From positions 69,673 to 133,672 of IMG/VR virus record IMGVR_UViG_3300042295_001370: a stretch of DNA of 64,000 nt. One strand, written 5' to 3'. The notes beneath the pieces were generated by a model. That model searched no databases. It was not told the DNA's origin and saw only the letters and a program-made list of their open reading frames with translations. This DNA comes from a virus (taxonomy: Duplodnaviria; Heunggongvirae; Uroviricota; Caudoviricetes). Numbering within the stretch: position 1 is the first letter of the stretch; every line of letters starts with the position of its first letter. This document shows, in pieces, positions 27,369 through 51,475 of the stretch. The position numbers and the translations under genes were made by a program.

Positions 27369-27372
27369 TGGC

Positions 27373-28946: not shown

Positions 28947-29272
28947 GTGAGCTCAAACTCCACAGCCATCTCTTTGTCCCGGAACATGCAACCACCAGTG
29001 AAGAGATAGTAACCACCATCTGGGTAATGTTCCAAGAGCCATGGCGTCACTGCGCCTTTTGTCCAGACGCTGTGAGCAGTGAGGGGTACAAGATACCATC
29101 CTTGGACTCGATATATTTCGGCTAAAATTTCACTGTTGATCTCTTCCTGGATAAGTTGCTCGATCTCATCGCTCACAGTGTGTTTCAATGTTTGTGGTTT
29201 TTCCATTGTCCAAGTTGCGCTCAACTTACGCACAGGGGCAAGGACAGTTTGTTTGGTGATTTTTATTTCCAT
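28937..29272 (-). CDS. LTW-family small protein (paralog)
   Basis: Ends ...EMAVEFELTWT. Confidence 0.4.
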   Translation of the reverse strand: MEIKITKQTVLAPVRKLSATWTMEKPQTLKHTVSDEIEQLIQEEINSEILAEIYRVQGWYLVPLTAHSVWTKGAVTPWLLEHYPDGGYYLFTGGCMFRDKEMAVEFELTWT

Positions 29273-29273
29273 G

Positions 29274-29525
29274 CTATCCCCACGTCAAGGTAAACAACAG
29301 GGCATCTTCTTGGCGTTTGAAGTCCCATGTGTTGTAGCGAAACTGCTCACATTTGCCAGAGGTGTTTTCTGCCAGCCAGTCGTCAATCTTTGACACAGTT
29401 GATGGCATGCCCGTCAGTAACTCACGCCAAGGATTGGGTACATTGGGCAACACCACGCGGTGCCATCCTCGGCGGGGTTTGATCCGTTGTGGCGTCTTAT
29501 TTCTGCGTGCCATCTGCACCTGCAT
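29274..29525 (-). CDS. LTW-family small protein (paralog)
   Basis: Ends ...EDALLFTLTWG. Confidence 0.4.
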   Translation of the reverse strand: MQVQMARRNKTPQRIKPRRGWHRVVLPNVPNPWRELLTGMPSTVSKIDDWLAENTSGKCEQFRYNTWDFKRQEDALLFTLTWG

Positions 29526-33412: not shown

Positions 33413-33530
33413 AGGTGTCCACCAGAGTTTTGATCTCTTGCTCAGCCTCTTCCAGCGTGGAGACTGTGCGCCAAGTGCCGTTGGGACTGCTCACTCGAAA
33501 CTTCACCGTGTCACCTTTGTAGGCCATCAT
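33336..33530 (-). CDS. hypothetical protein
   Basis: Start codon overlaps the ligase stop codon (ATGA). Confidence 0.35.
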   Translation of the reverse strand: MMAYKGDTVKFRVSSPNGTWRTVSTLEEAEQEIKTLVDTYGVAWAAVDRIETTRILVRQVKADE

Positions 33531-34744
33531 TCGTCTCCCACACTTTGCTGGCTCCACCGCGGCGCACGGAACAGTGAGCGTGCCTCGTCCACCCGGGTCT
33601 GCGTGCCAGTGCATTTGCGGATCACATCGCACACCAGCTCACGCCAGTCCACGTGGCCCTCACGGGCCCAGACCTTGAACACAGCACTACGCAGGTTGGG
33701 CTCAAGACCCGGTGCTGCCTCCAGTGCAAACCGCTTTCTATCGTCACCAAACTGCCGCCGGAGCTTGACATACTGGTCCTTCCATATGTAGGCAGTTTGC
33801 CCCACACCCGTCCAGAAGGCGTTCTCGTAGGCGTCGATGCGAGCCAGGTCCTCCACAGGCAGAAAGCTCTTGACGTCGTCCAGCTTTTCCGCCAGCATGA
33901 GGTCGATGAGGTTCTTCTCCTGCGTGAGAGCATCCTTGGCACGGTGGATACGCACATACCAGGCCGATTTCAACTTGGCCATATGTCCATCATCCCACCG
34001 GATGATCCACCCCTCCTCGCCTTCCAGCTCATGCGTCTCCCGAACGAGCTGCTCCATGCTAGCCACAGTACCAGGATAGGCCTTGACTAGATCCAGCTCA
34101 TACTCGGCCGCCAGTTCCTGCATCTGAGAGTAGGTGAGATACTCACCCGAGTTGATGTGACGCACAGCAGTCAGCACCAGTCGATCAACTGGATAATCAC
34201 ACACAATCTTTTGTTGACGAGTACACCACTCGAAACAGGCAGTGTATCCCTGCTCCAGTGTGTCTCGGATAAATCGGTCATAGTTGTCTCGAGTTGCCAC
34301 GAACGGCTCAACCTGTGCTGCTACAGCAGTGGGCCCCATCTTGGTTGCAAGACAGTAGCCCTTACCTAGAGGTAGAGCACGAATCATACTTCCATCCAAC
34401 TTCTCAAGGATGATGTGTGGCTGAGTGAGATCGATGTTTTCAATCAAAGTCTCGCGCCGTTCGCCCACGTTCCAAAACTTCTGAAATGCGCGGCTCACCA
34501 ACTTTCCATCAAGGCTGAACAGCAGCCCCCTACACTCCCGGCGGATAGCCTTGAGTCGAGTCTGCCGCTCGCGCATGCTGGCGCTGCCTCCAGCAGTATG
34601 GACCTCGGGGAACATGTCCGGGCCCATCTGAATGTAGTTGACCACAGTGCCCCAGGGCCGCTGGGCTACAATGAAGCCTTCCACACCCTGGACAGCTTCC
34701 AGCACTTGATCCAGGTGCGTGATCTCGGGAAACGTGTAGTGCAT
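33527..34744 (-). CDS. RNA ligase, Rnl1-like (nucleotidyltransferase KxDG family)
   Basis: Motif I 'IILEKLDGSMIRA' closely resembles T4 Rnl1 'TKEDGSLVS'. Size 405 aa. A GTTGACA-N16-TATACT promoter lies immediately upstream. Confidence 0.6.
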   Translation of the reverse strand: MHYTFPEITHLDQVLEAVQGVEGFIVAQRPWGTVVNYIQMGPDMFPEVHTAGGSASMRERQTRLKAIRRECRGLLFSLDGKLVSRAFQKFWNVGERRETLIENIDLTQPHIILEKLDGSMIRALPLGKGYCLATKMGPTAVAAQVEPFVATRDNYDRFIRDTLEQGYTACFEWCTRQQKIVCDYPVDRLVLTAVRHINSGEYLTYSQMQELAAEYELDLVKAYPGTVASMEQLVRETHELEGEEGWIIRWDDGHMAKLKSAWYVRIHRAKDALTQEKNLIDLMLAEKLDDVKSFLPVEDLARIDAYENAFWTGVGQTAYIWKDQYVKLRRQFGDDRKRFALEAAPGLEPNLRSAVFKVWAREGHVDWRELVCDVIRKCTGTQTRVDEARSLFRAPRWSQQSVGDE

Positions 34745-34812: not shown

Positions 34813-35715
34813 CTAGATGTGGCAGTCAACAATGGTGATCAGTGTGTCCTCGGGCAGTCCGTTGATCATCTCATTCATCCGAGCATACCACTCACTCTTG
34901 GGCATGTCGTCTGTGCTCATGCCCCACCAGCCCATGCTGCCGCGCTCCATCCACGCACCGTCCTTGACAAATGCAAAGGTCATGCCAGCACTGTCTCGAG
35001 CAGTTTGCACATACTCTTCACGGCCGACCAGCACCGAGTCCTCACACCAAAACAAGTCTTTGGCTTGGTGCAGGGCCTGCCTGCCCGTTTGGTTATGATA
35101 GAAATTTCGAGCACCGTCAGTGTCCCTGGGGAAGCGTGAAATCACACTGTCCCAGCTTTCCCAAACATTTGGAGCAAGTGCCCGCACCCGATCCCAATAG
35201 ACTCCGGCCTTCTCGCCTGCCTCGTCACGCATGCCTGCCCAGTCGATGTCTCCCATCCTCGCCTGGTCAGCATACCCTTGTTTTGCTCCTTGGGTTCCCA
35301 GTCCAGGGCGGCCTTGCACACCCTTTGCACCAGGCTTGAGCTTGAGCGTGCCAGTCCATCGCCCACCAACCTCGTACCAGTCCCACTGCTTGTTGGGGTT
35401 GGTGCGCTTCACAGCCCGGACGAGCTCACCGTCCCGGACCACCACAAATCCAAACTTGTGCTCACCCTCTCGATCAACTTCGCTCTCATCTTCAACTACC
35501 TGGTCTTCAAAACCGTAATATTCCAGCGCATAGTCAAGGGCAGATTGGTCTTCCTCTGCATGTTCCTCCGCATCTTTCATATCGGCAAGGAACTTGTCAG
35601 TGACGTCCACATCCACCACATACTGGTCTGCCACACCAGTGCATTCAAACTCGTGGTAGGGAGCAAGCTGGGCTTCATGGTCAGGCCCAATAACCATAAC
35701 GGTGAAGTGACTCAT
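34813..35715 (-). CDS. hypothetical protein (300 aa)
   Basis: Confident ORF with its own promoter and ribosome-binding site. No motif recognised. Confidence 0.55.
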   Translation of the reverse strand: MSHFTVMVIGPDHEAQLAPYHEFECTGVADQYVVDVDVTDKFLADMKDAEEHAEEDQSALDYALEYYGFEDQVVEDESEVDREGEHKFGFVVVRDGELVRAVKRTNPNKQWDWYEVGGRWTGTLKLKPGAKGVQGRPGLGTQGAKQGYADQARMGDIDWAGMRDEAGEKAGVYWDRVRALAPNVWESWDSVISRFPRDTDGARNFYHNQTGRQALHQAKDLFWCEDSVLVGREEYVQTARDSAGMTFAFVKDGAWMERGSMGWWGMSTDDMPKSEWYARMNEMINGLPEDTLITIVDCHI

Positions 35716-35742
35716 TGCTGTATCCTCTGTTGCGTTGCGTGA

Positions 35743-35770
35743 GTTATAGCAGGTTTTGCAAGGTTGTCAA
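35743..35770 (-). promoter_or_regulatory. sigma70-like promoter TTGACA-N16-TATAAC
   Basis: Reverse complement reads TTGACAaccttgcaaaacctgcTATAAC...agaggatacagcaATG. Confidence 0.5.
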
Positions 35771-35814
35771 CTGGTTTGTTTTCGGATGATTGATGTGCTG
35801 GCTGCAGGCACACT

Positions 35815-36108
35815 TTACCTACAAAAACGTTCCACAACGGCACGACCATAAACATCATATCCCACTAGCCTATCAGTGCAAATGGGCTCTGGTGCAGGAG
35901 CATAGATGTTTGGTGCAATGATAGCGCCCAACACTGCACCGCCAACAATGCCCCCTACAAGAGGGGCTACCCAGTTTCCGCCACCGTGGTTATGGTGATG
36001 GTGGCGGTAGTGAGGCGCAGGAGTATAGCCATAGGGGCGGTAGTGGTATCCTTGCGCCCAACAGGGACTGGAGGACAGCAACATGAATGCAACAAGGAAC
36101 CTTTTCAT
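35815..36108 (-). CDS. small secreted/membrane His- and Gly-rich protein
   Basis: Signal-peptide-like N-terminus MKRFLVAFMLLSSSPCWA, then an HYRHHHHNHGGG stretch and a Gly-zipper-like hydrophobic segment. Confidence 0.45.
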   Translation of the reverse strand: MKRFLVAFMLLSSSPCWAQGYHYRPYGYTPAPHYRHHHHNHGGGNWVAPLVGGIVGGAVLGAIIAPNIYAPAPEPICTDRLVGYDVYGRAVVERFCR

Positions 36109-36116
36109 AACCTTAT

Positions 36117-36842
36117 TTAAGCGGCTGCTTGCAGTGTGTCAACACTCTGCTTGTTACGCATACGCTCGTAGATGCGCCAGGGCCGACTGTCCACTTCAAA
36201 AGGGTTGCTGACCTTTTGTGAGAGGGCTTGCAGTGCCAGTTGACGGTCAACTTCGCGACGCATCCTCTTGGCTCGTTGGAAACCAGCCAGCTGCAATCCT
36301 GGCAGCATGTCTGAGTATTGGGCTTCCAGTGACTTGCACTGTTCGCGTCGCGTTTGAGTAGCAGTGGCTTGCACCTCGTGGTTGCGCACCAAATGAGTCA
36401 ACTGCTTGATGCGCTTGTTCTGCTCAGCAGCCTCTCGGCGCATCTTACGTTCAAAAGCCAGTGAGCGAAAGCTGCCAGTCTCAGGCGCGGGCCGACTCAT
36501 TTCCATAGCCTGCAGGAAATCTTCCCAGGGCGTGTTGCCTCGACGGTTGTTGCATCGGCCACACGCCACAGCCAAGTTGGTGATGTGGTCAGTGCCACCA
36601 CAACTGCGAGGAGTGATGTGCTCAATGGTGGCACTGTTCTTGAAGCCTTGTTCGCCACGCATCTCGCAGTGACACCAGCAGCAGCGCCAACGCTGCACCT
36701 CAGCTAGCCGTGTGCGATCATACGCCTTGCGAGCCAGTGCTCGAGCCCGGCGAGCTTGATCCTGATTGGGATATACCTCCAGCCAATAGGGCAAGGTTCT
36801 CATCTGGGGATCATTTACGATGCTGGGCACATCAATTCGCAT
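36117..36842 (-). CDS. HNH endonuclease
   Basis: CCWCHCEMRGEQ...IEHITPRSCGGTDHITNLAVACGRCNNRRGN. Start moved to MRIDVPS because a GTTGACA-N17-TATGTT promoter and an AAGGAGA ribosome-binding site lie inside the ORF-track's extended ORF. Confidence 0.7.
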   Translation of the reverse strand: MRIDVPSIVNDPQMRTLPYWLEVYPNQDQARRARALARKAYDRTRLAEVQRWRCCWCHCEMRGEQGFKNSATIEHITPRSCGGTDHITNLAVACGRCNNRRGNTPWEDFLQAMEMSRPAPETGSFRSLAFERKMRREAAEQNKRIKQLTHLVRNHEVQATATQTRREQCKSLEAQYSDMLPGLQLAGFQRAKRMRREVDRQLALQALSQKVSNPFEVDSRPWRIYERMRNKQSVDTLQAAA

Positions 36843-36891
36843 ATCCGTCTCCTTTGCAACACCCACAACATACAGAGTCTGCACATCCGTG

Positions 36892-37200
36892 TCAACCACT
36901 ATGTCCTGTGTTGTTTTGCCAAACCAGCTGAAAATGCGTCACCAGTTCCCTAGTGGGGAAAGCGATATACTGGTATCCAAAAAGCTGTGTATATGCCCAA
37001 ACGCACTCACCTTGTGGTGGATCACCAATTCCAGTGTCACCAGGTCCTTGTTGGCGTAGCCAATCCAAGATTTCGTATTGTTGGCGGTAGTATTCCTCGC
37101 CAAGTGTAACAGAGCAGCAGAAAAGATCTTTGGGAAACAAAAGCAGCGCATTGTGGAAGACTCTGTCTTCTGTCACTTGGCTATCACAGTGAAATTCCAT
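36892..37200 (-). CDS. Trp-rich small protein, LTW-family-like
   Basis: Ends ...LVTHFQLVWQNNTGHSG. Confidence 0.3.
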   Translation of the reverse strand: MEFHCDSQVTEDRVFHNALLLFPKDLFCCSVTLGEEYYRQQYEILDWLRQQGPGDTGIGDPPQGECVWAYTQLFGYQYIAFPTRELVTHFQLVWQNNTGHSG

Positions 37201-37514
37201 CCATGGTATTGGATTTCCATGTGTTCACTTTCCAACCAAACTAGGAACTCTTGCCATAACTTGTGGTCTCGATGGCACACAAAACGTGGAGGGTGTTCAG
37301 GATTTTGAGGGTCAGTCCAGTTATTTCCAGGAGTAAACATGAGCATGGGCCGATTTTCCAAAACACAACTGATGATCTGGCTTTTAAAGCGTTCCAGATC
37401 ATAGTGCTGGTCATGCACACGTTCTCGCTCACGTTGCACTGCCAACAACGTGGTTCTCAACAGCTCTTGATCCAACAGCATTTGGCGTTGGTGTAGGTGT
37501 TGTCCCAATTTCAC
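37173..37514 (-). CDS. hypothetical protein
   Basis: 113-aa ORF. Confidence 0.3.
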   Translation of the reverse strand: MKLGQHLHQRQMLLDQELLRTTLLAVQRERERVHDQHYDLERFKSQIISCVLENRPMLMFTPGNNWTDPQNPEHPPRFVCHRDHKLWQEFLVWLESEHMEIQYHGWNFTVIAK

Positions 37515-37696
37515 CGACGCGCCCTGCGATACTCGCGTTCAGCCCATGTACTCAGCTTGTCAGCTTCATCAGCATAGCGTGCCCGGCTGATCTCCCCTCG
37601 CATATAACGCTCGTCCAGGCGATCTGTTGCACGTTCCACGGTACGCTCAATCTGATCTTCGGTCATGTGTGGATAGCTCACTTGGTTTATCAACAT
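37511..37696 (-). CDS. small hypothetical protein
   Basis: 61-aa basic ORF. Confidence 0.25.
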   Translation of the reverse strand: MLINQVSYPHMTEDQIERTVERATDRLDERYMRGEISRARYADEADKLSTWAEREYRRARR

Positions 37697-37764
37697 CTGT
37701 AATTTAGCGGGTTTGACACTTTTGTCAAGGAGAAAGGTGAGCTTTCACCCACCTTTCTGTTTGA

Positions 37765-38685
37765 TTACTTCACATGCACAAAGGGCAGTGCTGCACCTGG
37801 GACCATAGTGGTAGGGAGCTTACCGTCCCATCGCTCTGCAGCCGTAAGTGTGACTAGCTCTGCGTTCGCGCGAAGTGCATCGCCTCGGGCCCGGATGGCC
37901 TTGGCTTCAGCTTCGCCGCGCAGTTGGATAGCTTCAGCTTCAGCTCCAGCTCGTGCCTTGACTGCATCAGCTTCGGCCTGCGCTTTGGTTACAACAATTT
38001 CAGCCTGCACCTTCTCTCGGATCGCATCCTGTCGATCTCTTTCAACAGCCACCTCCGCGAGCATTCGCTGTTCGATGGATTTTTCGTAAGCGTCACTGAA
38101 ATCAATGTTTTCAATAGCCAGATTCTCGATCACAAACGGCCCTTTGATGTTGGCCACAATGGCCGCCTTGACATCTGTGCCCAGTCGGGTGCGATCCTGA
38201 ATCGCTGTGACTGCGTTGTAGCGACCCATTACGTTCTTGAGCTCGTCACGCACACCCGGCAGGATCACACGGTCTTGAACTCCTCGGAGCCCGCCAAACT
38301 CCTTGTAGACATCGTCCACATTGTCTTCGCTCACACGCCAGCTCACCGAGAAGGTGATAGTTGCAGGTTGCTGGTCTCGGCTGTAGACCGCTTCCTTGTC
38401 CAGTCGCAGCAGGACGGTCTCGGTGCTCATGAGCACCACATTGTCGATGAAGGGGATTTTGAATCCCAGCCCTGGCTGCACCACGCTCACCAGCTTGCCG
38501 TTGCGGAGCAGCACACCGCGCTGACGCTCATCAACTGTGTACCAGCTGCCGAGGATCACTGTGAGTGCCAGCAGAGCAGCCATTGCGCCACCTACCATGG
38601 TAGCGATGAATCGAGCGTTCACTCGGGGAGTCTCCTGTAGAGGGTTGATTCGAGGATTGGAGTCACGCGGAGGTTGATTCCACAT
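37765..38685 (-). CDS. SPFH/band-7 (prohibitin/HflC-like) membrane protein
   Basis: N-terminal TM helix, then an SPFH core (VLLRNGKLVSVVQPGLGFKIPFIDNVVLMSTE...), then an Ala/Glu-rich coiled-coil tail. Confidence 0.7.
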   Translation of the reverse strand: MWNQPPRDSNPRINPLQETPRVNARFIATMVGGAMAALLALTVILGSWYTVDERQRGVLLRNGKLVSVVQPGLGFKIPFIDNVVLMSTETVLLRLDKEAVYSRDQQPATITFSVSWRVSEDNVDDVYKEFGGLRGVQDRVILPGVRDELKNVMGRYNAVTAIQDRTRLGTDVKAAIVANIKGPFVIENLAIENIDFSDAYEKSIEQRMLAEVAVERDRQDAIREKVQAEIVVTKAQAEADAVKARAGAEAEAIQLRGEAEAKAIRARGDALRANAELVTLTAAERWDGKLPTTMVPGAALPFVHVK

Positions 38686-38833
38686 ATCAGTTGGGGTCCT
38701 TGCGGTCGGGAGGGGTTCGGTTGCGATCGTAGAAACTTTCGATCAGTTTGCTGGCACCATAGGCACATACGCCAATGAGCACCAGAGCACCGATGAGTTC
38801 AATCAGCAATAGCACAGGCAGTGTCCTTTGTTG

Positions 38834-39316
38834 TTAGGGATAGAGTTTGAGATGGCCTAGAATGTCTGAAACTTCGGGCTTGTTGCGATCCACAAGGCAC
38901 CAAATGCAAGTGGTCTCTTGGCGAGTCATCAGCACACGCCCATCATCCATGGTTTTGATGACAGCTGCCTTGCCATTAGCTGCAACAAGATCAGCTACCT
39001 CTTGATTTTCCACAAAAAATGGGTAGCTGGGGTCGACGACTGACCCCTTGACAGTGAGGTGGTATTCCCAACCATAAGTGCATCTCAGACCATGAAGCTG
39101 GTCCATTGTGGCACCCAGCACAATTGTGGTGTTGAAGTAGTAGGCACCTTGTGAGACACCGTCGGCAACATACTGTTGAACTAGTGGATGATCTGCAAAT
39201 AGGCTCATCATCTGGGTTCCAGCATGATGTACTTGTGCAGCCAGCTTTCCTGGGTTCATACTGGGCAGATCAGTTCGGGCCAGCACGTAGACAGCTAGAT
39301 CAGGCGTGGCTTCCAT
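38834..39316 (-). CDS. peptidyl-tRNA hydrolase, PTH2 family
   Basis: LARTDLPSMNPGKLAAQVHHAG... and the C-terminal ...ILGHLKLYP correspond to the PTH2 signatures (VRTDLxMxKGKxAAQxxHA ... GHLKLY). Start moved downstream of its promoter. Confidence 0.7.
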   Translation of the reverse strand: MEATPDLAVYVLARTDLPSMNPGKLAAQVHHAGTQMMSLFADHPLVQQYVADGVSQGAYYFNTTIVLGATMDQLHGLRCTYGWEYHLTVKGSVVDPSYPFFVENQEVADLVAANGKAAVIKTMDDGRVLMTRQETTCIWCLVDRNKPEVSDILGHLKLYP

Positions 39317-39340
39317 TTGTTGTTCTCCTTGTGTAGCTTC

Positions 39341-39368
39341 AATATACAGCACAGACAGACTGTGTCAA
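39341..39368 (-). promoter_or_regulatory. sigma70-like promoter GTTGACA-N16-TATATT with AAGGAG ribosome-binding site
   Basis: Reverse complement reads gGTTGACAcagtctgtctgtgctgTATATTgaagctacacaaggagaacaacaaATG. Confidence 0.5.
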
Positions 39369-39437
39369 CCTTTTTATCTCCGTCCATAGAGAGGGTGTTG
39401 GTACATTGTATCACACGCAACAGACTCACAGATGCCG

Positions 39438-39500
39438 TCAACTCCATGTGAGCAAACATTGCAGATAAGTTTCTTGGTTGGGAAACTCCATGCAGGACTT
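39438..39500 (-). pseudogene. 3' remnant of an LTW-family gene (...ETYLQCLLTWS*) truncated at the edge of the GC-rich island
   Basis: Reverse-strand frame reads ...WKSCMEFPNQETYLQCLLTWS-stop. This matches the family C-terminal pattern W..E....(E/D)..ahhF.LTW. The upstream part is replaced by GC-rich DNA. Confidence 0.4.
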
Positions 39501-40800
39501 CCAGCGTCATGCGCCCAGGTTCTTGGCGACCGTGGTCGCGGCAGGCTGGCTCATGGCGTGGCGGTCCTCGCTGCGGCGGCTGGGCGGATGAGGACATAAG
39601 TAGGTGAAAAATGCACTTCTGAGAACACGCACAGGCCGATGCGCCGGGATGCGGTAACTCATCCGCCGTAGCCGCGCGGATGGGCTTCGCGCCAGGCCAG
39701 GGCGGTGGCGACGATGTCATCCAGTGCTGCGAGGCGCGGCTGCCAGCCGGTTTCGCGCATGATCCGCGCCGGGCTGGCAACAAGGCGGGCGGGGTCGCCA
39801 GGGCGGCGTGGGGCGAAGCGGTGCGGCACCGGGCGGCGGCTGACGCGCTCCACGCTCTGGATCACCTCCAGCACCGAATGCCCGGCGGCGGTGCCGAGGT
39901 TGTAGGTGACGCTGGCGTGGTCCAGCCGCTCCAGCGCCGCGAGGTGGGCGGCGGCGAGGTCGGTGACATGGATGTAGTCGCGGATGCAGGTGCCGTCCGG
40001 CGTGTCGTAATCGGTGCCAAACACGGCGAGTTCGGCGCGACGGCCGAGCATGGCGTCGATGGCCAACGGGATCAGATGGGTTTCCGGCGTGTGGTCCTCG
40101 CCCAGGCGGCCCTGCGGGTCGGCGCCGGCGGCGTTGAAGTAGCGCAGGCAGGCGGAGCGCATGCCGTGGATGCGTTCGGCCCAGCCCAGCGCGCGCTCCA
40201 TCATCCATTTGCTTTCGCCGTAGGGTGAGCCGGGGTCGATCGCGGTTTCCTCGTCGATCGGCATGCGGTCTGGCGTGCCGAACAGGGCGGCGGTGGAGGA
40301 GAACACGAAGCGGGGCACGCCGTGCTTCACGCAGGCCTCCAACAGGCGCAGGCCGTTGCCGACATTGGCCGAGAGATAGCCGATCGGGTCGCGCATGGAA
40401 TCGCCCACCAGCGACAGCGCGGCGAAGTGGAACACCGCATGCCACGGCCCCTGCGCCAGCACGGACGCGATCGCATCGGGGTCCTCCAGCGCGCCGGTGA
40501 CCAGCGTGGCGCCGGGGAGCACGGCTTCGCGATGGCCGGTGCGCAGGTTGTCGAACACCACCACCTCCGCGCCTTGGTCCAGCAGGGCGGCGACGAGATG
40601 GCTGCCGACGAAGCCGGCACCTCCGGTAACGAGAAAGCGGCGTGACATGGCGGCATCCTGAAATGGCCAGCCGGCTAGCCAGCGGGGTCGCGTCCGAGAA
40701 TGACCGGCTCCTGGGTTGCGATCCAGTGCAGCAGCCCTGTGGGGTCGTATGGGTTGGGGAAGGCACGGCGCGGGCACGCCAGAGCAGGCAGCAGTTCGCA
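39490..40800. other. about 1.3-kb GC-rich (~68 % GC) island of foreign composition carrying galE
   Basis: There is an abrupt composition shift against the roughly 42 % GC background. Alternative frames here yield only Arg/Pro/Ala-rich artefact ORFs. Confidence 0.7.
39659..40648 (-). CDS. galE: UDP-glucose 4-epimerase
   Basis: MSRRFLVTGGAGFVGSHL... includes the Rossmann GxxGxxG motif and the SSTAALFG...YGESK (YxxxK) catalytic motif, with full-length collinearity to GalE (329 aa). Start set at MSRRF; the ORF track extends it to 40801. Confidence 0.85.
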   Translation of the reverse strand: MSRRFLVTGGAGFVGSHLVAALLDQGAEVVVFDNLRTGHREAVLPGATLVTGALEDPDAIASVLAQGPWHAVFHFAALSLVGDSMRDPIGYLSANVGNGLRLLEACVKHGVPRFVFSSTAALFGTPDRMPIDEETAIDPGSPYGESKWMMERALGWAERIHGMRSACLRYFNAAGADPQGRLGEDHTPETHLIPLAIDAMLGRRAELAVFGTDYDTPDGTCIRDYIHVTDLAAAHLAALERLDHASVTYNLGTAAGHSVLEVIQSVERVSRRPVPHRFAPRRPGDPARLVASPARIMRETGWQPRLAALDDIVATALAWREAHPRGYGG

Positions 40801-40953
40801 TATGATTTGTTTTTGTTCGGGAGTGTCCTGTTGGTGCATGGCGCTGGCACCCAACTCCATGTACTGTTTAATCAAACCTTGCGCCACAGGGTTGTCAGCT
40901 ACCCGATAGCCCTTGAGTGTGCCCCATTTCAAGAGAATATAGTTTTCGGTCAT
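40675..40953 (-). CDS. possible chimeric ORF: AT-rich phage-like 5' half fused to GC-rich 3' half
   Basis: The N-terminal 50 codons (MTENYILLKWGTLKGY...) have phage composition and the remainder is GC-rich. It may be the 5' part of the LTW-family gene that was disrupted by the island. Confidence 0.25.
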   Translation of the reverse strand: MTENYILLKWGTLKGYRVADNPVAQGLIKQYMELGASAMHQQDTPEQKQIICELLPALACPRRAFPNPYDPTGLLHWIATQEPVILGRDPAG

Positions 40954-40961
40954 CGTGGCCC

Positions 40962-41045
40962 CGACTCAGTTGAACTCTGTTGTTTCACCGTTCTTCACCC
41001 GTCGGAGAAGATATGACGGAGAGAGGAACTTGCAGATTTTCCTGC
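40962..41045 (-). pseudogene. diverged duplicate of the 3' end (last ~25 codons + stop) of the Rnl2-like gene
   Basis: Reverse-strand reading RKICKFLSPSYLLRRVKNGETTEFN* compares with GRKICKFISPAYLLRRVKNGEATEFN* at 41470-41545. Identity is about 80 % at the nucleotide level. Confidence 0.5.
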
Positions 41046-41059
41046 TATGCAGTCGATAC

Positions 41060-41332
41060 TCACTTGGCCCGCGTGGTAGCTTTCGTGTGAGCCCGCACTT
41101 GCTTGGTGTACGCGCTCAGGTCACGGATGAAGCAATGCCAGGGGTCAACATCAGCCATCCACATCTGATACACATCCAGGTTTTGTTCCAGCCAACCAGG
41201 CATTTTGACCAGCGCGCGGAGCACAGTATCAGCACGATCACGACTGAGATTGCTAGTGTCTAGACCCAACGCGGCAGCAGCCACATACGCGCGGCCAACG
41301 TTAGCAAACATAGGCTTGGGGAGATCGCTCAT
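41060..41332 (-). CDS. hypothetical protein
   Basis: 90-aa ORF with an upstream TTGACA-N17-TAATAT promoter. Confidence 0.45.
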   Translation of the reverse strand: MSDLPKPMFANVGRAYVAAAALGLDTSNLSRDRADTVLRALVKMPGWLEQNLDVYQMWMADVDPWHCFIRDLSAYTKQVRAHTKATTRAK

Positions 41333-41359
41333 TTGTTAGTCCTTTATGTATTATACGTC

Positions 41360-41388
41360 ATATTAGCACAGTTCCGGACATTGTCAAC
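41360..41388 (-). promoter_or_regulatory. sigma70-like promoter GTTGACA-N17-TAATAT
   Basis: Reverse complement reads gGTTGACAatgtccggaactgtgcTAATATgacg... Confidence 0.45.
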
Positions 41389-41469
41389 CAGAAAGTTTCT
41401 GTTTCTGGGATCAATATGTCTAGGGACTTGGGCATAGGCAGCAGTAGACCTCCAGTAGATCGTAGCGCA

Positions 41470-42681
41470 TCAGTTGAACTCCGTTGCCTCGCCGTTCTTC
41501 ACTCGGCGGAGCAGATACGCCGGAGAGATGAATTTGCAGATTTTCCTACCGTGCAGGGGATGCTCGGTGGGAACCAGGCTGCGCACCACCACACCTTCCC
41601 GCACATTGGTGCCACCCACCGTTGTGACACCGTCTCTCACAGCCTCAATGGCAGTTTGGTCAAAGGGGCCAGTGTAGAGGGTAGGTACACAGGGCAGGTC
41701 CTTTGCCCAGTAGGCCACGGCATCGGGACTTAGCCACTCCCGCCCGATCCGCATGTCGAACACCCGGAACGTGGGCTTAGTGGTGCCGTAGTCGAGGTCC
41801 TGCACGCCCTTGCCGAAAACTTCTCCCAGGATAGCCACCGGATGAGCACCGCCGTCCACCTTGCTCATCCTGTGGAGGAGCCCGGCGAGGTCATGGTCGG
41901 CTAGCAGTGTGCCAAGTGCCCGCACATAGAGGTTGTTGGCGTTGGCTTCGTTGTTCTTGAACACCAAACCCTGACCGCCTAGTCCCTTGCTGCTGACAGT
42001 GATGCTGCGGTAGCCTGCATGGTCGGGGAACATCTCGGGATGGTCCATGCCTGGGAAGTACTGGATGATGGTACAAGATCCATGAATTTTTTCTTGGGCC
42101 ACCACCACCTCACCAGGTTCGAAGATGTCAGGCACGCTCTCCCAACGCTGAAAATCGTAGGTAAGAGCAGCCTCAGCAACACTGGCAACTTCACCAGACA
42201 TCGCAGCGGGAATGGGCGGCTCCCACCTGGTGATGCCCAAGATTGCAGCAGCATCCTCGCCTAGCTTGACTGGATATTCAAGACTGTCTTTGCCTACTAC
42301 ATGTACATCCGTCGCCGACCCAAAATCAGCAGAAAGGCAATCGTCATCACCATATGCAATGAGCCCATACAGCACACCTTCGCTGAAAATACCACGCAGC
42401 TTGAGTGGCTTCACACGGTTGCCATCACTGCCTGCCAGCACACCCTTACCAGCGTCTTCGTTCCAAAATCCCATGTCCTTGAGCAGCCATTCAGGCAGCA
42501 CCGAGGCTGAGGGAATGTATACGACCCAGTCACCGGGCTTGTAGCGCGGGCTACCATCCTCTAGTTTGTTTGCGATGCAGAGATAACCGAGGCCTTCAAG
42601 GCGCACAAGAGAAAGGCGATCCGCATTCGGATGTTCTTCGACTGCGGCCACACGCACCACAGGGCAACTGAACTTGCTCAT
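41470..42681 (-). CDS. RNA ligase, Rnl2-like nucleotidyltransferase with N-terminal tRNA-binding (Myf/EMAP-like OB) domain
   Basis: N-terminus VVRVAAVEEHPNADRLSLVRLEGLGY matches the 'HPNADKL' tRNA-binding OB-fold signature. Motif I 'VVAQEKIHGSCTI' matches T4 Rnl2 'EKIHGTN'. Confidence 0.6.
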   Translation of the reverse strand: MSKFSCPVVRVAAVEEHPNADRLSLVRLEGLGYLCIANKLEDGSPRYKPGDWVVYIPSASVLPEWLLKDMGFWNEDAGKGVLAGSDGNRVKPLKLRGIFSEGVLYGLIAYGDDDCLSADFGSATDVHVVGKDSLEYPVKLGEDAAAILGITRWEPPIPAAMSGEVASVAEAALTYDFQRWESVPDIFEPGEVVVAQEKIHGSCTIIQYFPGMDHPEMFPDHAGYRSITVSSKGLGGQGLVFKNNEANANNLYVRALGTLLADHDLAGLLHRMSKVDGGAHPVAILGEVFGKGVQDLDYGTTKPTFRVFDMRIGREWLSPDAVAYWAKDLPCVPTLYTGPFDQTAIEAVRDGVTTVGGTNVREGVVVRSLVPTEHPLHGRKICKFISPAYLLRRVKNGEATEFN

Positions 42682-42712
42682 CTCGTCCTCACAAAAACTG
42701 TCTTATCAACGC

Positions 42713-42741
42713 ACATTAGACTAGGTGTAGCTATGTGTCAA
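42713..42741 (-). promoter_or_regulatory. sigma70-like promoter GTTGACA-N17-TAATGT
   Basis: Reverse complement reads gGTTGACAcatagctacacctagtcTAATGT...gtgaggacgagATG. Confidence 0.4.
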
Positions 42742-42750
42742 CCAAAAACT

Positions 42751-43047
42751 TTATGCCATTTCCTCAACCACCCACTCATCCACCACCACAGCCCTCACAC
42801 AGTAATGTGTTCCAGGAGCCATGTCTGTCACAGAATTGAACAAGTGAGTGTAGTATCTTTGGCCAATTTGCTTGATGGTAGGCAGTTTGAGATAGGTCTT
42901 ACCAGTTTTGCTGAGATTGCTCTTTACTGCAATCGTGCCGCTGCCATAATAGCTGGGTAGGTCTGCGAGCTTGACTCGCACTTCCCTGCTGGGGCAAAAA
43001 TACATGCTAGTAGGCACATGCAGGATCCGATAAACAGCAGCCATCAA
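42751..43047 (-). CDS. hypothetical protein
   Basis: 98-aa ORF. Confidence 0.3.
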   Translation of the reverse strand: MMAAVYRILHVPTSMYFCPSREVRVKLADLPSYYGSGTIAVKSNLSKTGKTYLKLPTIKQIGQRYYTHLFNSVTDMAPGTHYCVRAVVVDEWVVEEMA

Positions 43048-43631
43048 ACCAGGCCCATTTCCTGTCGGATGAAGCGGAGCAGGCCAGCCATGCTGTCCAC
43101 ATTGCCGTTAGCACCAATCACTGCCCGCAGTGCCCGGCTCCGAACGTCTCGAGAGATGTTCATCTGCAGGCTTGTGTTGATCCAGTCAATCTTCTCGTTC
43201 ACCTTGGCCATTGTCATCCGGTTGGGGTTGAACTTGGCGTTCCAGTTGCTGCCCATGCCATCACTGCTGGGATCGCGCTTGCTGTTCACATTGCGCACAC
43301 CAACGTTTGTAAGACCCTCCTGGATCAGCTGATCCGCCACCTGTTCCTTGTGTTCAGCAGCACGGATCATGTTGGGAAACTCGCCCTCCACGTCCTGTGT
43401 TTCCCAACCCTCATATTGGGTGTTGACAAAAGCCAGCATCAGCCCACCAGTGAGAACGCGATCGTTCTTGTAGTTGCCTACCAAGCCCTGTTCATATGCA
43501 TAACGGCTCTTGCCTGCAATACCCTGCCAAGTGGTGTTAGCAGCCTTGCTGTCAACATTGTGAATGCTCACATGAAACAACCGCTTGGCGGCGTGCTTGT
43601 GAACAACGATCTTCTGAGGCTTGTTGGTCAT
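43044..43631 (-). CDS. hypothetical protein
   Basis: 195-aa ORF with a TTGACA-N16-TATGTT promoter at 43651-43684. Confidence 0.5.
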   Translation of the reverse strand: MTNKPQKIVVHKHAAKRLFHVSIHNVDSKAANTTWQGIAGKSRYAYEQGLVGNYKNDRVLTGGLMLAFVNTQYEGWETQDVEGEFPNMIRAAEHKEQVADQLIQEGLTNVGVRNVNSKRDPSSDGMGSNWNAKFNPNRMTMAKVNEKIDWINTSLQMNISRDVRSRALRAVIGANGNVDSMAGLLRFIRQEMGLV

Positions 43632-43695
43632 GTCATGTACTCCATTTACCAGCGCAACATAGCAGGATATTGAGTGTTGTCAACCAAAGATGTGC

Positions 43696-44067
43696 CTAAA
43701 AGGGCGTAATTGTGCTGGCAAAAGCCTCCACAACGTCCTTGGCCTCTTTCAGGCCCAGAGCCGTTTCAGTTCGCAGCTCTTTGATGGCATTGATCTTCAT
43801 GCCAGCACGAACATAGTCTTCCACAGACTTGCTGATGGTGACCCCATACATGGTGGGACGTTCAGTATTTGTGAGGCGTCGCATAGCTTCCCGACTGGTT
43901 TCGTCCAGGATCAAGATGTCGCGTGCATCTCGTGACAGTGCGTAGATGTCGTGTGCCCGAGCTTGCCCTTCTCGAGCACCTTCGTGGCTTAGGTGGATGA
44001 TCTCGTTCACCAGGTGCACTAGGCGCTTGAAGTCATTGTCAGAAAGGTTTCCGAGATCATCGGTCAT
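43696..44067 (-). CDS. protein with ribosomal protein bL12 (L7/L12) C-terminal-domain-like segment
   Basis: C-terminal '[25 protein letters not shown]' compares with E. coli bL12 '[25 protein letters not shown]'. Length is 123 aa against 121 aa for bL12. The last ~25 residues of a canonical CTD are absent. Confidence 0.5.
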   Translation of the reverse strand: [123 protein letters not shown]

Positions 44068-44078
44068 AACCGGTTTTC

Positions 44079-44318
44079 CTATTTCTCAAACACGTGAAGA
44101 CGAGTGCTGCCAAACGAGGTCTTTACCTTGCGCACACGGTAGCCATGCCGCGCAAGGATCATGCTGGCCTCGCTGTAGAGGCGTTCATCCCACCCCCATA
44201 CCTTGATGCTGCGACCATTTTGAATGCGGTCGCTGAACAGGATTCGAGGTGTACCCAGCAGGGTGATGAGGCTGCGCACAAGACGGGCGGGAGTGGGTTT
44301 GGGTTTGTTGTTCATGTG
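44079..44318 (-). CDS. small basic hypothetical protein
   Basis: Trimmed to MNNKPKPTP because a GTTGACA-N17-TACTTT element lies directly upstream. Confidence 0.3.
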   Translation of the reverse strand, partial: HMNNKPKPTPARLVRSLITLLGTPRILFSDRIQNGRSIKVWGWDERLYSEASMILARHGYRVRKVKTSFGSTRLHVFEK

Positions 44319-44358
44319 CCTAAAGTAGCAGGGGGTTACGGGGTTGTCAACAGTGGTT

Positions 44359-44664
44359 TTAGCGTTTCCAGCCCAGTTCTTCACCCTTGCGATATGCGCC
44401 CATGATCCAACCCAGTGCCTCAGGATATTCCTGCACATCGTCAAGGATAATGTCAGTAATGGCATCATCCAGTTCAGGATCCGGATCCTGCTGGACCCCC
44501 ATAAGTCGTTCAAGAGCCTCTTCGCGCTGAGCAGCAATGATGCTAGCCTCCAAGAGTGCTTGCATGATCCGAGCCATTTCTGGGTCATCTTTCCATTCCG
44601 GTGGAAAATTCCCACCAATAATGGTCCACTTACCAAATGGGTTTGGTTGGTCTTTGGGTTCCAC
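44359..44664 (-). CDS. acidic hypothetical protein
   Basis: 101-aa Asp/Glu-rich ORF. Confidence 0.4.
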   Translation of the reverse strand: MEPKDQPNPFGKWTIIGGNFPPEWKDDPEMARIMQALLEASIIAAQREEALERLMGVQQDPDPELDDAITDIILDDVQEYPEALGWIMGAYRKGEELGWKR

Positions 44665-44724
44665 AGCGTTGTTCCTCTATATGCCCAACAGTTGTAACAG
44701 GGCGTTTCACTAATGCAAGATTTT

Positions 44725-45783
44725 TTAGAGAGTTTTCAGGATAAGATGGTTGCTGTTTAGTTTGCCAGAGAGTGCCCACTTTTTGCCCTTGAGGCTGGTC
44801 ATCAACACTTCTGCACGTCGAACTGTGGTAATGCTGGTAAATCGTGGCAGCCAACTGTCGGGCTCACGCAAAGCTCGCCCTTGACTCAAGGCAGGGTCAA
44901 AATTGGTGATGCGAGCCCCTTGCACACTGAGCTTTTGCTCTCCACTGGCTCGATACACTTCCACGTGATGAGTTTTGGTGTTGTAGACTACGGCCAGTTC
45001 AGCACCAACCACATTAGTGGGATCCACTGACGTGATACCCAAATCAGTGTCTGTTGACTTCACTTTGATACGAGTGGCAGCAGCTTCTCCTTGGCGATCT
45101 CTAGTGTCAACAGTGCTGCTCATCAACCTAGCCCGTGCAGTTCGCTTGCCTTGTTTGATGCTGCCACGATTGCTGTTAAGTAGTGTGAGGGTTTCAACCA
45201 CTGTTCGTAACACAGGCACCCAATTGCTGACAGTGGGGTCACTTTGGGCTTCATGCAAACAGTCTTTGTAATGAGTCAATAACTGACGATGAACTCCGCT
45301 GTTGCTGGGTGCATACGCTGATACAATGTCTCGCACACCTGCTGCCACCTCACGTATTGTTCGAGTGCCTTGTAACGTTTGTGTTTTGAGGTTGTCAATT
45401 CGACTGTAACAGTTAACATACTGATCCCGCTGCCGTGTTTGGCTAGTAATGGGCAAATTTTGCCATGTGGGAGTAGCTCGCTCAGTTTGCTCTGCCAGGC
45501 GGTCCAGCAGCAACACCACTCGGGTGAGACTGCTTGCGTTCAACTCAGCACCATGGTTCAAACAAAATGCAATCTTGCCTTCGAGGCCAACAACACTGCT
45601 GCTCAAATCCAGCACACTGTTTTCTTTGCCTAAGGAAGCTGCATAAGTGGCCAGCTGCTTCTTCAACTCGCGTTGGTCCAGTTCAACGTTGATTTGATTC
45701 AATAAATCAGCGTATTTTGCTTCAAAATCTGCATCAGTGCAACGCAAATTGGCCGCCAGTAGTTTGAGAGTTTCCATTGTCAT
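44725..45783 (-). CDS. hypothetical protein (352 aa)
   Basis: Start set at MTMETL, downstream of a TTGACA...TAAATT promoter and a GGAG ribosome-binding site. Confidence 0.5.
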   Translation of the reverse strand: MTMETLKLLAANLRCTDADFEAKYADLLNQINVELDQRELKKQLATYAASLGKENSVLDLSSSVVGLEGKIAFCLNHGAELNASSLTRVVLLLDRLAEQTERATPTWQNLPITSQTRQRDQYVNCYSRIDNLKTQTLQGTRTIREVAAGVRDIVSAYAPSNSGVHRQLLTHYKDCLHEAQSDPTVSNWVPVLRTVVETLTLLNSNRGSIKQGKRTARARLMSSTVDTRDRQGEAAATRIKVKSTDTDLGITSVDPTNVVGAELAVVYNTKTHHVEVYRASGEQKLSVQGARITNFDPALSQGRALREPDSWLPRFTSITTVRRAEVLMTSLKGKKWALSGKLNSNHLILKTL

Positions 45784-45869
45784 ACTCCAATTTATGCAGG
45801 CCAATTTGGTTTGTGTCAACTGACGGTCAGCAGCCAAAACAGGTAGCTATCGCTGCTGTCAAATTTTGT

Positions 45870-46067
45870 TCATGTCCAAATCAACGCAAACTCAGCAGCT
45901 TGCTCCTCTGAAGGAAACAACCAGCGACCTTGCCCAATATACATCCATTTGATGGGTTGGTCACCAAAGTTGTTGTTGCACCAGATGCTGATCTTCAACA
46001 GATTGTGAACTGAGTTGATGGGCAAGGTAACTTCATAAGGCAAGTGGCTCCACGGTGTAGGGCCCAT
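45870..46067 (-). CDS. LTW-family small protein (paralog)
   Basis: IWCNNNFGD ... EEQAAEFALIWT. Confidence 0.45.
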   Translation of the reverse strand: MGPTPWSHLPYEVTLPINSVHNLLKISIWCNNNFGDQPIKWMYIGQGRWLFPSEEQAAEFALIWT

Positions 46068-47507: not shown

Positions 47508-47708
47508 TCAACTTTCCCAAACAAGGCCAAACCAAATTAAATCATCCTTATTTGTAAACCACCATTCATAACGACTTCTGTCGTGGCATCGCACAGTCCA
47601 CTTGATATCCCGGTCACCAAAATTATCAGCACACCAACAGATACGACTGTTGGCTTCTTGAATACTCATCCTGATTAGCCGTGTGTTGTAACAATGAGAA
47701 AGTGTCAT
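47508..47708 (-). CDS. LTW-family small protein (paralog)
   Basis: CWCADNFGD ... WFTNKDDLIWFGLVWES. Confidence 0.45.
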   Translation of the reverse strand: MTLSHCYNTRLIRMSIQEANSRICWCADNFGDRDIKWTVRCHDRSRYEWWFTNKDDLIWFGLVWES

Positions 47709-48905: not shown

Positions 48906-49634
48906 ATGATTCCCACGATCTATTGCCTAACTTTTCGCAATCTCAGCAAAGCAGAACGCATGCGACACCGGTTTGAGCAAGTGGGGCTAGACATCTCTCT
49001 TGTGGAGAGTGTTGCTGCATCGCACCCCACACTGGCACCAGATAACTGGCAAAAAGAAAGGATCAAAAAAGAAAACAAATGGAGCGAGCTGGCTTGGAGT
49101 TGCATGGCTGGTCACATGAAGATTCTCAAAAAGTTTATCTATTCAGGTGACGAAATTTGTATAGTAGTGGAGGATGATGTTATGATCCGCCGAGACTTTG
49201 CTGAAGAATTGCCTTGTGTGGTAGCCAATTTCCAGAAGCTTGATTTGGATATATTGATGCTGGGATACCTAAGGCCTGAAACCATCTCTAGAGTAGAGGC
49301 CACTATGCCAATTATCAGTCAGCCCTACACGTATCACAGCTTTGAATTCAATGTTTATGGTACTCAAATGTATATGATACGCCGACGTCATGCTCAATGG
49401 GCTGTAGACACATTTGAGGACCCAGTTCACCAATGGAAAACTTTGATTGATCCTCATTATAGCATTTCAAACAATGCTGACTGGACTATCACCAAAAGCG
49501 GCCGCAGGGCCCTTATCTACCCAATGTTAGCTGTAGAAGAGAAGGGTGGTGGCAAAGCTTATAGAGATGACACTCAAACTCAGTGGCATGATCTCTGTCA
49601 CAATGCCAACTACAACCCTGATGTTCACATCTGA
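48906..49634 (+). CDS. glycosyltransferase family 25 (LPS/LOS beta-1,4-galactosyltransferase-like)
   Basis: N-terminus MIPTIYCLTFRNLSKAERMRH... is typical of GT25 (Lic2A/LgtB). It has a DD acidic pair (VVEDDVMI) and is about 240 aa. It is the only plus-strand gene in this block. Confidence 0.65.
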   Translation: MIPTIYCLTFRNLSKAERMRHRFEQVGLDISLVESVAASHPTLAPDNWQKERIKKENKWSELAWSCMAGHMKILKKFIYSGDEICIVVEDDVMIRRDFAEELPCVVANFQKLDLDILMLGYLRPETISRVEATMPIISQPYTYHSFEFNVYGTQMYMIRRRHAQWAVDTFEDPVHQWKTLIDPHYSISNNADWTITKSGRRALIYPMLAVEEKGGGKAYRDDTQTQWHDLCHNANYNPDVHI

Positions 49635-50787: not shown

Positions 50788-51018
50788 TCAACACCATGTG
50801 AGCTTGAACAAGAGCATGTCTTCTTCCCTCTCAAACCAAATGTTACCAGCTCGTGTCCAATAATACCGTTCCCCAGGTGCTGCGTCAAGCCAACTAAACA
50901 TCTTGTCTCCGTTAACGGCGGAGAAATTCACTTGGCAGAGATGCCATTGGTCCAGCATGCTGTAGTCACGTCTCTGGTTGTGACCTTTGGCGAGATAGTC
51001 GTTGTCGATATCGTGCAC
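50788..51018 (-). CDS. LTW-family small protein ('EREEDM' subfamily)
   Basis: ...YYWTRAGNIWFEREEDMLLFKLTWC. Confidence 0.45.
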   Translation of the reverse strand: MHDIDNDYLAKGHNQRRDYSMLDQWHLCQVNFSAVNGDKMFSWLDAAPGERYYWTRAGNIWFEREEDMLLFKLTWC

Positions 51019-51021
51019 GGG

Positions 51022-51243
51022 CTATGACCACGTGAGCGTGAACAAGATCATGTCTTCTTCTCTCTCAAACCATACTCGAGTTCCGCCCTCCCAAAAGCGG
51101 CCACCATCTGTTGTTTTGAGCCACTGGAGGATGGTATGTCGATCAGGCCCAACAAATTGGCGAATAGAACAGCTATGCCATTCCTGGATTTTAGTGTGGT
51201 TAGTGTGGTAGTCGCTGGGGTATTGTTGATCAATATCGATCAT
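51022..51243 (-). CDS. LTW-family small protein ('EREEDM' subfamily)
   Basis: ...RFWEGGTRVWFEREEDMILFTLTWS. Confidence 0.45.
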   Translation of the reverse strand: MIDIDQQYPSDYHTNHTKIQEWHSCSIRQFVGPDRHTILQWLKTTDGGRFWEGGTRVWFEREEDMILFTLTWS

Positions 51244-51259
51244 TTATTCTTCCTACCAA

Positions 51260-51469
51260 TCAACACCATGTGAGCTGGAACAGGATCATGTCTTCTTCTC
51301 GTTCAAAATAAATGGAGATGACACCAACCCAATAGCGTCCGCCATCTGTAGTGTTGAGCCAGTTGTAAACGGATTTTTGATCAGGCAACGGACTGCTCAG
51401 TCGACAACTGTGCCAGCCTTTGAGGATATCAAACCCAAGGTTGATTAGTTCTCTTTCAACGTCTGTCAT
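51260..51469 (-). CDS. LTW-family small protein ('EREEDM' subfamily)
   Basis: ...RYWVGVISIYFEREEDMILFQLTWC. Confidence 0.45.
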   Translation of the reverse strand: MTDVERELINLGFDILKGWHSCRLSSPLPDQKSVYNWLNTTDGGRYWVGVISIYFEREEDMILFQLTWC

Positions 51470-51475
51470 GTTGCC

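Follow-up and report, generated by a model that had tools for sequence, protein, structure and literature searches.

How does an intact bacterial galE come to lie among phage genes, and what has kept it there? The question is raised by a 64,000-nucleotide (nt) stretch of DNA, here called the window, which covers positions 69,673 to 133,672 of IMG/VR record IMGVR_UViG_3300042295_001370, a virus of the Caudoviricetes. The window contains an island of high guanine-plus-cytosine (GC) content that carries galE, the gene for UDP-glucose 4-epimerase. The explanation that we consider highly probable as a whole is illegitimate capture of this island, maintenance of its galE under selection, and later exchange of the island between phages with re-trimming of its junctions.

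The island spans 39494 to 40789 (1,296 bp, 69.8% GC), each end being certain to about 2 bp. Measured in 200-nt intervals, GC content is 46–51% at 39200–39499, 66–75% over 39500–40800 and then 49–56%. A sequence-only reading of this DNA had described such a step; the step is real, but the background of 42% given for it fits distant parts of the window, the 2-kb flanks having 52.7% and 54.0% GC (whole window, 46.7%). Within the island, galE (39659..40648, minus strand) is intact and encodes 329 amino acids (aa). Homology identifies its product as a UDP-glucose 4-epimerase: it scores 388.3 bits against the TIGR01179 equivalog model (cut-off 262.3), covering residues 5–326 of 329, matches Pfam Epimerase at 4e-57, and aligns over its full length to the solved structure 2c20, with the NAD-binding GGAGFVG (GxxGxxG), catalytic SST and YGESK (YxxxK) conserved. 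Thus, the earlier claim of an intact galE with all its motifs holds. The protein resembles bacterial GalE (TIGR01179; structures 2c20 and 1udc/1xel) in its full-length match, its Rossmann GxxGxxG and its Ser/Tyr/Lys catalytic residues, and differs in being virus-encoded.

What did the island replace? A related phage without it, represented by IMG/VR contig L015, supplies the empty site. The flanks of L015 are 85–87% identical to the window at the nucleotide level: L015 65–1958 aligns to window 42666–40790, where homology ends, and L015 2286–4013 aligns to window 39493–37765, where it picks up again. The 327 bp of L015 that correspond to the 1,296-bp island complete two small genes, A and B. 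Gene A (MTENYILLKWGTLKGY..., 88 aa in L015) has 246 homologues of ~86–88 aa in phages and alphaproteobacterial prophages, among them one in an unrelated high-GC temperate phage that keeps the C-terminal GPIxNDWSGExMSxDxAxxYVLEY. Gene B (99 aa, MARIKPYY...MEFPNQETYLQCLLTWS*, the asterisk marking the stop) lies at L015:2042–2341, its start overlapping the end of gene A. What the island replaced is the final third of gene A together with 81 codons at the start of gene B, so that codons 1–55 of the former and the last 17 codons of the latter are left. The gene B remnant (39438..39491, minus strand; 17 codons and stop, MEFPNQETYLQCLLTWS*) belongs to a sequence that is intact in L015, which bears out the earlier view that the ...LLTWS* tail is what remains of a real gene. 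Alignment of the flanks to this island-free relative has therefore reconstructed both uninterrupted genes. The same reading had the island inserted into one gene; disruption there was, but in the form of a replacement that cost genes A and B 327 bp, and the island lies strictly within gene B only in a lineage described below (L107–L110).

At the other junction, an open reading frame (ORF) had been read as a phage 5' part fused to island DNA, and this too is correct. The chimeric 92-aa ORF (40675..40953, minus strand) consists of the 55 codons of gene A (40953–40789), 7 out-of-frame bacterial codons and the last 30 codons, with the native stop, of the gene that precedes galE in the bacteria (bacterial C-terminus ...RRAFPDPFDPAGLLQWIATQEPAILGRDPAG*). 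It returns to the bacterial frame because of a 10-bp deletion between GCGCCG repeats, which the alignment reveals in the window relative to the phage contig L114 and to bacteria. More distant relatives (L101–L105) also lack galE and, since genes A and B are intact in L015, the island is the derived state of the locus.

Where did the island come from? The nearest non-phage GalE proteins are encoded on bacterial contigs of 71–73% GC, in a gene order of unknown (688 aa), unknown (353 aa), galE, family-2 glycosyltransferase (GT2, ~930 aa), GT4, response regulator and lactamase_B. The whole island, beyond galE alone, is collinear with these loci, at 83–85% identity to L016–L018 and at 89.7% identity to L111–L113 over 40789–39492, matching the phage breakpoints. 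Between the window and L111, GalE is 95% identical in amino acids and the galE coding sequence 92.4% identical in nucleotides. This close bacterial homologue in conserved synteny marks galE as a gene of cellular origin. The best named (species-representative) genome for GalE is an Acetobacterales metagenome-assembled genome (MAG) from a lake (84% aa), followed by Acidisphaera, Acidisoma and Elioraea (63–68% aa). Comparison with the databases thus points to Acetobacterales as donor lineage (best match, 89.7% nt), and we read the island, from this synteny, as a raw fragment of an Acetobacterales chromosome (Alphaproteobacteria, ~71% GC), in agreement with the earlier proposal of a horizontally acquired high-GC bacterial segment. 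A plasmid search returned only a distant Azospirillum galE (~70%), and there is therefore no sign of a plasmid route.

The anatomy of the island follows the donor order. Taken along the minus strand, it begins with the last ~37 codons of the bacterial gene upstream of galE, continues with a 26-nt spacer bearing an AGGA ribosome-binding site and then galE, and passes through a 148-nt bacterial spacer between galE and the glycosyltransferase gene (39511..39658, minus strand; defined by alignment). The right end (39493..39510, minus strand) holds the first six codons (ATG ACG CTG GAA GTC CTG) of GT2, the next donor gene after galE, and matches the GT2 starts at L017:2063 and L111:2063. From this GT2 start codon and leader, joined to phage DNA, runs a 72-aa chimeric ORF (MTLEVLHGVSQPRNL...; 39295–39510, minus strand) that overlaps the gene B remnant and the promoter of the downstream PTH2-like gene, and is probably a meaningless by-product. 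The galE–GT2 spacer contains a conserved low-GC motif, GCATTTTTCACCTACTTATGTCCTCATCCG (39589–39620), kept in every bacterial and phage copy (L016, L017, L018, L111 and L114) although the surrounding sequence diverges by 10–17%; in the bacterial glycosyltransferase operon, it may serve as a regulatory site. We considered an RNA element or terminator within the island and dropped the idea: an Rfam search of 39200–41500 gave no match, and predicted folding of the galE–GT2 spacer was not significant (z = −1.0).

The island is not confined to phages of the window type. The 90%-identity cluster of GalE has 54 members, and the gene appears in two further phage contexts. In L107–L110, the order is ligase, nucleotidyltransferase, 90-aa ORF, intact gene A, B(1–26)::galE, B tail, a 73-aa B paralogue that in L107 has the gene B tail, PTH2 and Band_7. 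The fusion protein (P0242, 359 aa) reads MARINPYYRNNLVLTEHDKVVVELPF-QDAA-MSRRF..., that is, gene B codons 1–26 joined to the galE leader. The right junction of L107 is that of the window; its left junction, 20 nt upstream of galE, has a 6-bp microhomology (GCCATT), the only clear one that we found. In L114/L115 (P0250, on a 177-kb JGI contig), the bacterial fragment extends further in both directions, taking in more of the upstream bacterial gene and 53 GT2 codons, and ends at a promoter-like site, GGTTGACA-N17-TATACT (5264–5296). Outside the island, L114 and the window share no DNA similarity, and tblastx gave no credible common genes. The three contexts therefore show three different left junctions and a nested bacterial content (L114 > window > L107). 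Identity among their galE copies is 96.6–97.8%, whereas no sampled bacterium exceeds 92.7%, and all three carry a galE leader, GGCCATTTCAGGATGCCGC, unlike that of the bacterial copies.

Between the window and L107, synonymous divergence (dS) is 0.036 in gene A codons 1–55, 0.077 in galE and 0.115 in PTH2, but 0.37 in the 90-aa ORF, 0.67 in the ligase and 1.16 in Band_7. By these values, the island and ~2.5 kb around it are a mosaic block that two diverged backbones have come to share recently by exchange.

Is galE maintained by selection in these phages? By Nei-Gojobori estimates, nonsynonymous divergence (dN) is far below dS in each comparison of galE: window against L107 (dS 0.077, dN 0.0041, ω 0.053), window against L114 (dS 0.131, dN 0.0041, ω 0.031) and L107 against L114 (dS 0.099, dN 0.0055, ω 0.056). 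Synonymous changes outnumber replacements 19:3, 31:3 and 24:4 between the phage copies. Because the window and L107 have a common junction, the divergence of their galE genes arose in phages, which indicates strong purifying selection on galE as a phage gene. The sequence-only reading had allowed for strong selection, and an ω of ~0.05 among phage copies agrees with it; among the three copies, ω is 0.03–0.06, as expected of an auxiliary gene maintained by selection.

The companion claim, of no amelioration and hence a recent transfer, was too strong. GC content at third codon positions (GC3) of galE is 0.873–0.879 in the phages, 0.912 in L111, 0.924–0.930 in L016–L018 and 0.855 in the more distant L021, against 0.46–0.62 in neighbouring phage genes. 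The window copy (0.879) is thus below its nearest bacterial relative (0.912), and the phage copies have already diverged from one another (dS 0.08–0.13). This slight lowering (0.88 vs. 0.91) makes the capture young, not brand new: it came after the phage backbones and L015 had diverged, and is old enough for spread, re-trimming and the onset of compositional drift. The window-type population itself is nearly clonal, with no single-nucleotide polymorphisms over 38800–41500.

Could the junctions instead be an assembly artefact, with a bacterial galE contig misjoined into a phage contig? The sharp 17-point GC step would suit such a chimera, as would the absence of DNA-level similarity to any GenBank phage (megablast of 37500–43000 gave no match). 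One JGI contig that ends inside galE (L011) has six clustered mismatches near its end (window 40208–40295), which may represent a variant galE allele or bacterial reads mixed in at the contig end. Yet NCBI, JGI, Logan and ENA together have 22 contigs, up to 328,603 bp long, that encode exactly this GalE protein. One or both junctions are also found, at 99.4–100% identity and in the same gene order, in each of L001–L012, which stem from different samples and assemblers. Seven independent loci span the junctions at this identity; the junctions are identical across pipelines and samples (ENA megahit, Logan, JGI and NCBI MAG), and the right junction is the same in a diverged phage lineage. Since the junctions recur in independent assemblies from four sources, they are not an assembly artefact, and we give a chimera practically no credence. 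The sequence-only reading had pointed to an 11-mer at both boundaries, as would be left by a mobile element (an insertion sequence, transposon or integrative cassette) inserted with an 11-bp target-site duplication. The 11-mer, CAACTCCATGT (ACATGGAGTTG on the coding strand), does occur exactly twice in the window, at 39439..39449 and 40852..40862 (both given on the plus strand). A shared 11-mer in flanks of 75–150 bp turns up in only 0.1–0.4% of shuffles, so that the coincidence is locally improbable, and the island is found in three genomic contexts. However, the distance from junction to copy is 45 bp (39449 to 39494) and 62 bp (40790 to 40852), and both copies lie on the phage side, in DNA collinear with L015, where they encode on the minus strand ...TWS* of gene B and YMELG of gene A, respectively. 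They are also older than the island: L015, the empty site, already has both copies (11/11 at the B tail, 10/11 in gene A), and L107 has 11/11 in its intact gene A, though its left junction lies elsewhere. Two further exact 11-mer pairs lie within the same 2.8 kb. The repeat is a pre-existing coincidence in coding sequence and no target-site duplication, there being no direct repeat that abuts the island. The island thus recalls insertion sequences and transposons in having a short direct repeat on both sides and more than one context, and departs from them in other respects: it contains no transposase or integrase, only galE and gene fragments; no inverted pair joins ~39494 with ~40789; no tRNA was found in a search of the window; the repeat is neither abutting nor younger; and the ends fall in truncated bacterial genes and vary between contexts. 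A mobile element is, in our judgement, very improbable. Because such features are lacking and both ends cut bacterial genes, the island is better explained by illegitimate, end-joining-like recombination of a random chromosome fragment; at the left junction of the window island, microhomology does not exceed ~2 bp, and at the right one it is ambiguous.

We see hardly a chance that galE was ancestral at this locus and was deleted from the island-free relatives. Such an ancestry would account for galE at the same locus in the related lineage L107–L110, but not for genes A (88 aa) and B (99 aa) being complete in L015, the parts missing from the window being exactly those that the island replaces. 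Moreover, gene A belongs to a conserved family (246 members of ~88 aa), the GC3 of the island (0.88) is still close to the donor's, pieces of bacterial genes remain at both of its ends, and the more distant L101–L105 are without galE. Nor is the island likely to be neutral passenger DNA in which galE is intact merely through very recent capture. A composition still near the donor's and the near-clonal, SNP-free (38800–41500) window-type population would fit a passenger, which is nonetheless a very improbable account given the great excess of synonymous over replacement changes between phage copies (ω 0.03–0.06) and given that two lineages have lost non-coding and junk DNA but neither has lost galE or its leader. 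The number of captures is a closer matter. The window, L107 and L114 types may have arisen by independent captures from closely related host strains instead of by the spread of a single one, a possibility that we take seriously while thinking it the less probable course. A beneficial host gene could plausibly be captured more than once, and L114/L115 have a longer bacterial fragment on both sides while resembling the window in no other DNA or protein. Against this, the window and L107 have an identical right junction, so these two are not independent, and all phage copies are mutually closer (96.6–97.8%) than to bacteria (≤92.7%), with a common leader (GGCCATTTCAGGATGCCGC) distinct from the bacterial ones and with nested bacterial content.

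A broader scenario can be put forward only tentatively, and we would not bet on it as a whole. In it, galE would be circulating cargo, captured once from an Acetobacterales host, passed among co-infecting jumbo phages including the L114 type, trimmed stepwise toward a unit of leader plus galE, and retained to feed UDP-galactose to phage glycosyltransferases for modification of virion, phage DNA or cell surface. If true, the locus would offer a traceable, multi-step natural history of a host gene becoming a phage gene.

The sequence of events that we favor, capture by illegitimate recombination followed by selection and exchange, would then run as follows. A random 1.3-kb Acetobacterales fragment would have been joined into a phage accessory region with little or no microhomology, replacing 327 bp and thereby destroying the C-terminus of gene A and all but 17 codons of gene B. 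Its galE would have kept its own ribosome-binding site and probably owes its transcription to read-through from the promoter of the phage at 41387–41360. It most likely serves as an auxiliary metabolic gene (AMG) for the interconversion of UDP-glucose and UDP-galactose during infection, whose products could supply glycan synthesis, possibly via phage glycosyltransferases such as the GT25 encoded at 48906–49634. The island and its immediate flanks would later have been exchanged between related phage lineages by homologous recombination, with re-trimming of the junctions.

Several points weigh against this account or limit it. The true donor is unsampled, the best bacterial galE being only 92.4% identical in nucleotides. 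Phage-specific changes in galE run mostly from GC to AT (13:1 with three bacterial outgroups, 13:2 with five), on too few sites for significance. Judged solely by RNA ligase, the phage has its nearest cultured relatives among jumbo phages of Caulobacter and Brevundimonas, with an identity of just 36–39% aa.

How might galE be expressed, and to what end? A sigma-70-like promoter (TTGACA-16-TAATAT with a TG extension) is predicted at 41360..41387 (minus strand), upstream of a 90-aa phage ORF (41060..41332, minus strand) that is conserved in L015 and L107 and lies upstream of the chimeric ORF in the same orientation. No promoter or terminator was predicted inside the island, or between the site at 41387–41360 and galE. 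With this strong upstream site and no predicted signals in the island, galE is most likely transcribed together with the 90-aa ORF and the gene A chimera, its translation probably starting from the native ribosome-binding site. A second promoter-like site is predicted at 39368–39341 (minus strand), upstream of the PTH2-like gene. Both sites combine an extended GGTTGACA −35 with a TATAtT/TATACT −10, and one of the same type stands at the right edge of the L114 island. As for function, these phages encode glycosyltransferases, which makes it plausible, judged by gene content, that galE feeds phage-directed glycosylation. The window has a GT25 glycosyltransferase gene (PF01755, 30 bits) at 48906–49634 (plus strand). 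In L114, 2 kb from the island, 6881–9948 holds a cluster of NDP-sugar dehydratase/epimerase, formyltransferase, GT2 and FkbM methyltransferase genes.

Phage-borne sugar-nucleotide genes are well known, and their capture step is, to our knowledge, almost never visible. Here, donor synteny, both breakpoints, two destroyed phage genes, an empty-site relative and two derived forms are available together. The locus reveals no new kind of system. It documents host-to-phage capture by illegitimate recombination, followed by spread through homologous recombination, junction trimming and purifying selection, and it would suggest Acetobacterales as hosts of this uncultured group of freshwater jumbo phages, which may have glycan metabolism among their targets. 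Published lists of phage AMGs include galE, both for Patescibacteriota phages of groundwater (PMC12911398) and in comparisons of cyanophages (PMC10436341). There are GalE-like genes in 293 GenBank phage records and 333 IMG/VR matches, all at most 52% identical in amino acids to the window GalE. Like other phage AMGs for nucleotide sugars and O-antigen (galE, rmlB, rmlD, gmd and manA), the window galE is a host-derived gene between phage genes and under selection. In contrast to them, it was acquired independently (≤52% aa identity to them, 95% to an Acetobacterales gene), and its island has both bacterial neighbor-gene fragments and near-donor GC3. Because these were retained, the capture event can be reconstructed base by base. 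It is thus an independent acquisition of a known type, unusual only in the completeness of the reconstruction.

What kind of phage, and what part of its genome, received the island? Over 35000–46000, the window is identical to a 326-kb ENA metagenome contig, and its genes include those for a baseplate wedge, tail fibre, thymidylate-synthase-like protein, nucleotidyltransferase, HNH/homing endonuclease and two RNA ligases, as well as a 4,017-aa ORF. The window is therefore part of an uncultured freshwater jumbo phage of ~326 kb, and phage genes flank galE in all assemblies, which places it in a bona fide viral setting. One scan of a metagenome-contig collection, with a PTH2-like alignment as query, confirmed no relative; these phages are evidently absent from it. 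Directly downstream of the island is the PTH2-like phage gene (38834..39352, minus strand; 96% aa identity to L015). The stretch between the RNA-ligase gene and the PTH2-like and Band-7 genes is a plastic accessory region: the gene content from ligase to Band_7 differs in every relative examined, and L101–L105 each have another set of small genes. In this variability, and in a 96-nt duplication of the ligase end, the locus resembles the hyperplastic or accessory regions of large phages, in which small ORFs are gained and lost; it differs in that the newcomer is not one more small phage ORF but a cellular metabolic gene with bacterial flanks.

The duplication is a direct repeat (82% identity) of 40966–41061 and 41470–41565, which doubles the 3' end of the RNA-ligase gene and flanks the 90-aa ORF. 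The same arrangement occurs in L015 and L107; in L101 and L102, gene A comes directly after the ligase, with neither the ORF nor the duplicate. The 90-aa ORF, together with the nucleotidyltransferase in L107, seems to have entered as an earlier cassette whose insertion doubled the end of the ligase gene.

The interrupted gene B had been assigned to an 'LTW' family, a label of the sequence-only reading with no curated family behind it. What links gene B to this family is a short motif: gene B and its remnant have only F..x.E.....LTWS* at the extreme C-terminus in common with the LTW paralogues, and the paralogue profile scores weakly (8 bits for the remnant, 3.4 for gene B of L015, 10 for B2 of L107). 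The window has at least 11 small minus-strand ORFs (69–111 aa) that end in ...F.[RK].[ED][ED]..LF.LTW[CSTG]*, at 26818–29525, 47508–47705 and 50788–51733; by this motif, they would form a multi-copy paralogue family in two clusters. In the 111-aa ORF at 28937–29272 (minus strand), the N-terminal 56 aa match residues 134–197 of the T4 Gp23 capsid family (PF07068, E 1.3e-6, above cut-off) and are fused to an LTW-type tail. The match suggests that part of a capsid gene has been reused in this small ORF. Searched against Pfam and PHROG, the LTW paralogues, the 90-aa ORF and genes A and B matched no family.

Three further features of the window lie apart from the island. Near the HNH endonuclease gene, 35800–36300 is a hypervariable or recombined patch, with 41–61 differences in ~500 bp in L003 and L005 and none across the other 9–10 kb compared. 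An RNA-repair-like toolkit is spread over 21788–23020, 33527–34744, 38834–39352 and 41470–42681, comprising two RNA ligases (one of PF09414 type, one of T4 Rnl1 type), a kinase/phosphatase-like protein and the PTH2-like peptidyl-tRNA hydrolase, to which relatives add Thg1 and an HD-domain protein. Finally, the 4,017-aa protein is encoded by a single ORF at 4155–16208 (plus strand), which follows a 1,126-aa baseplate-wedge homologue.

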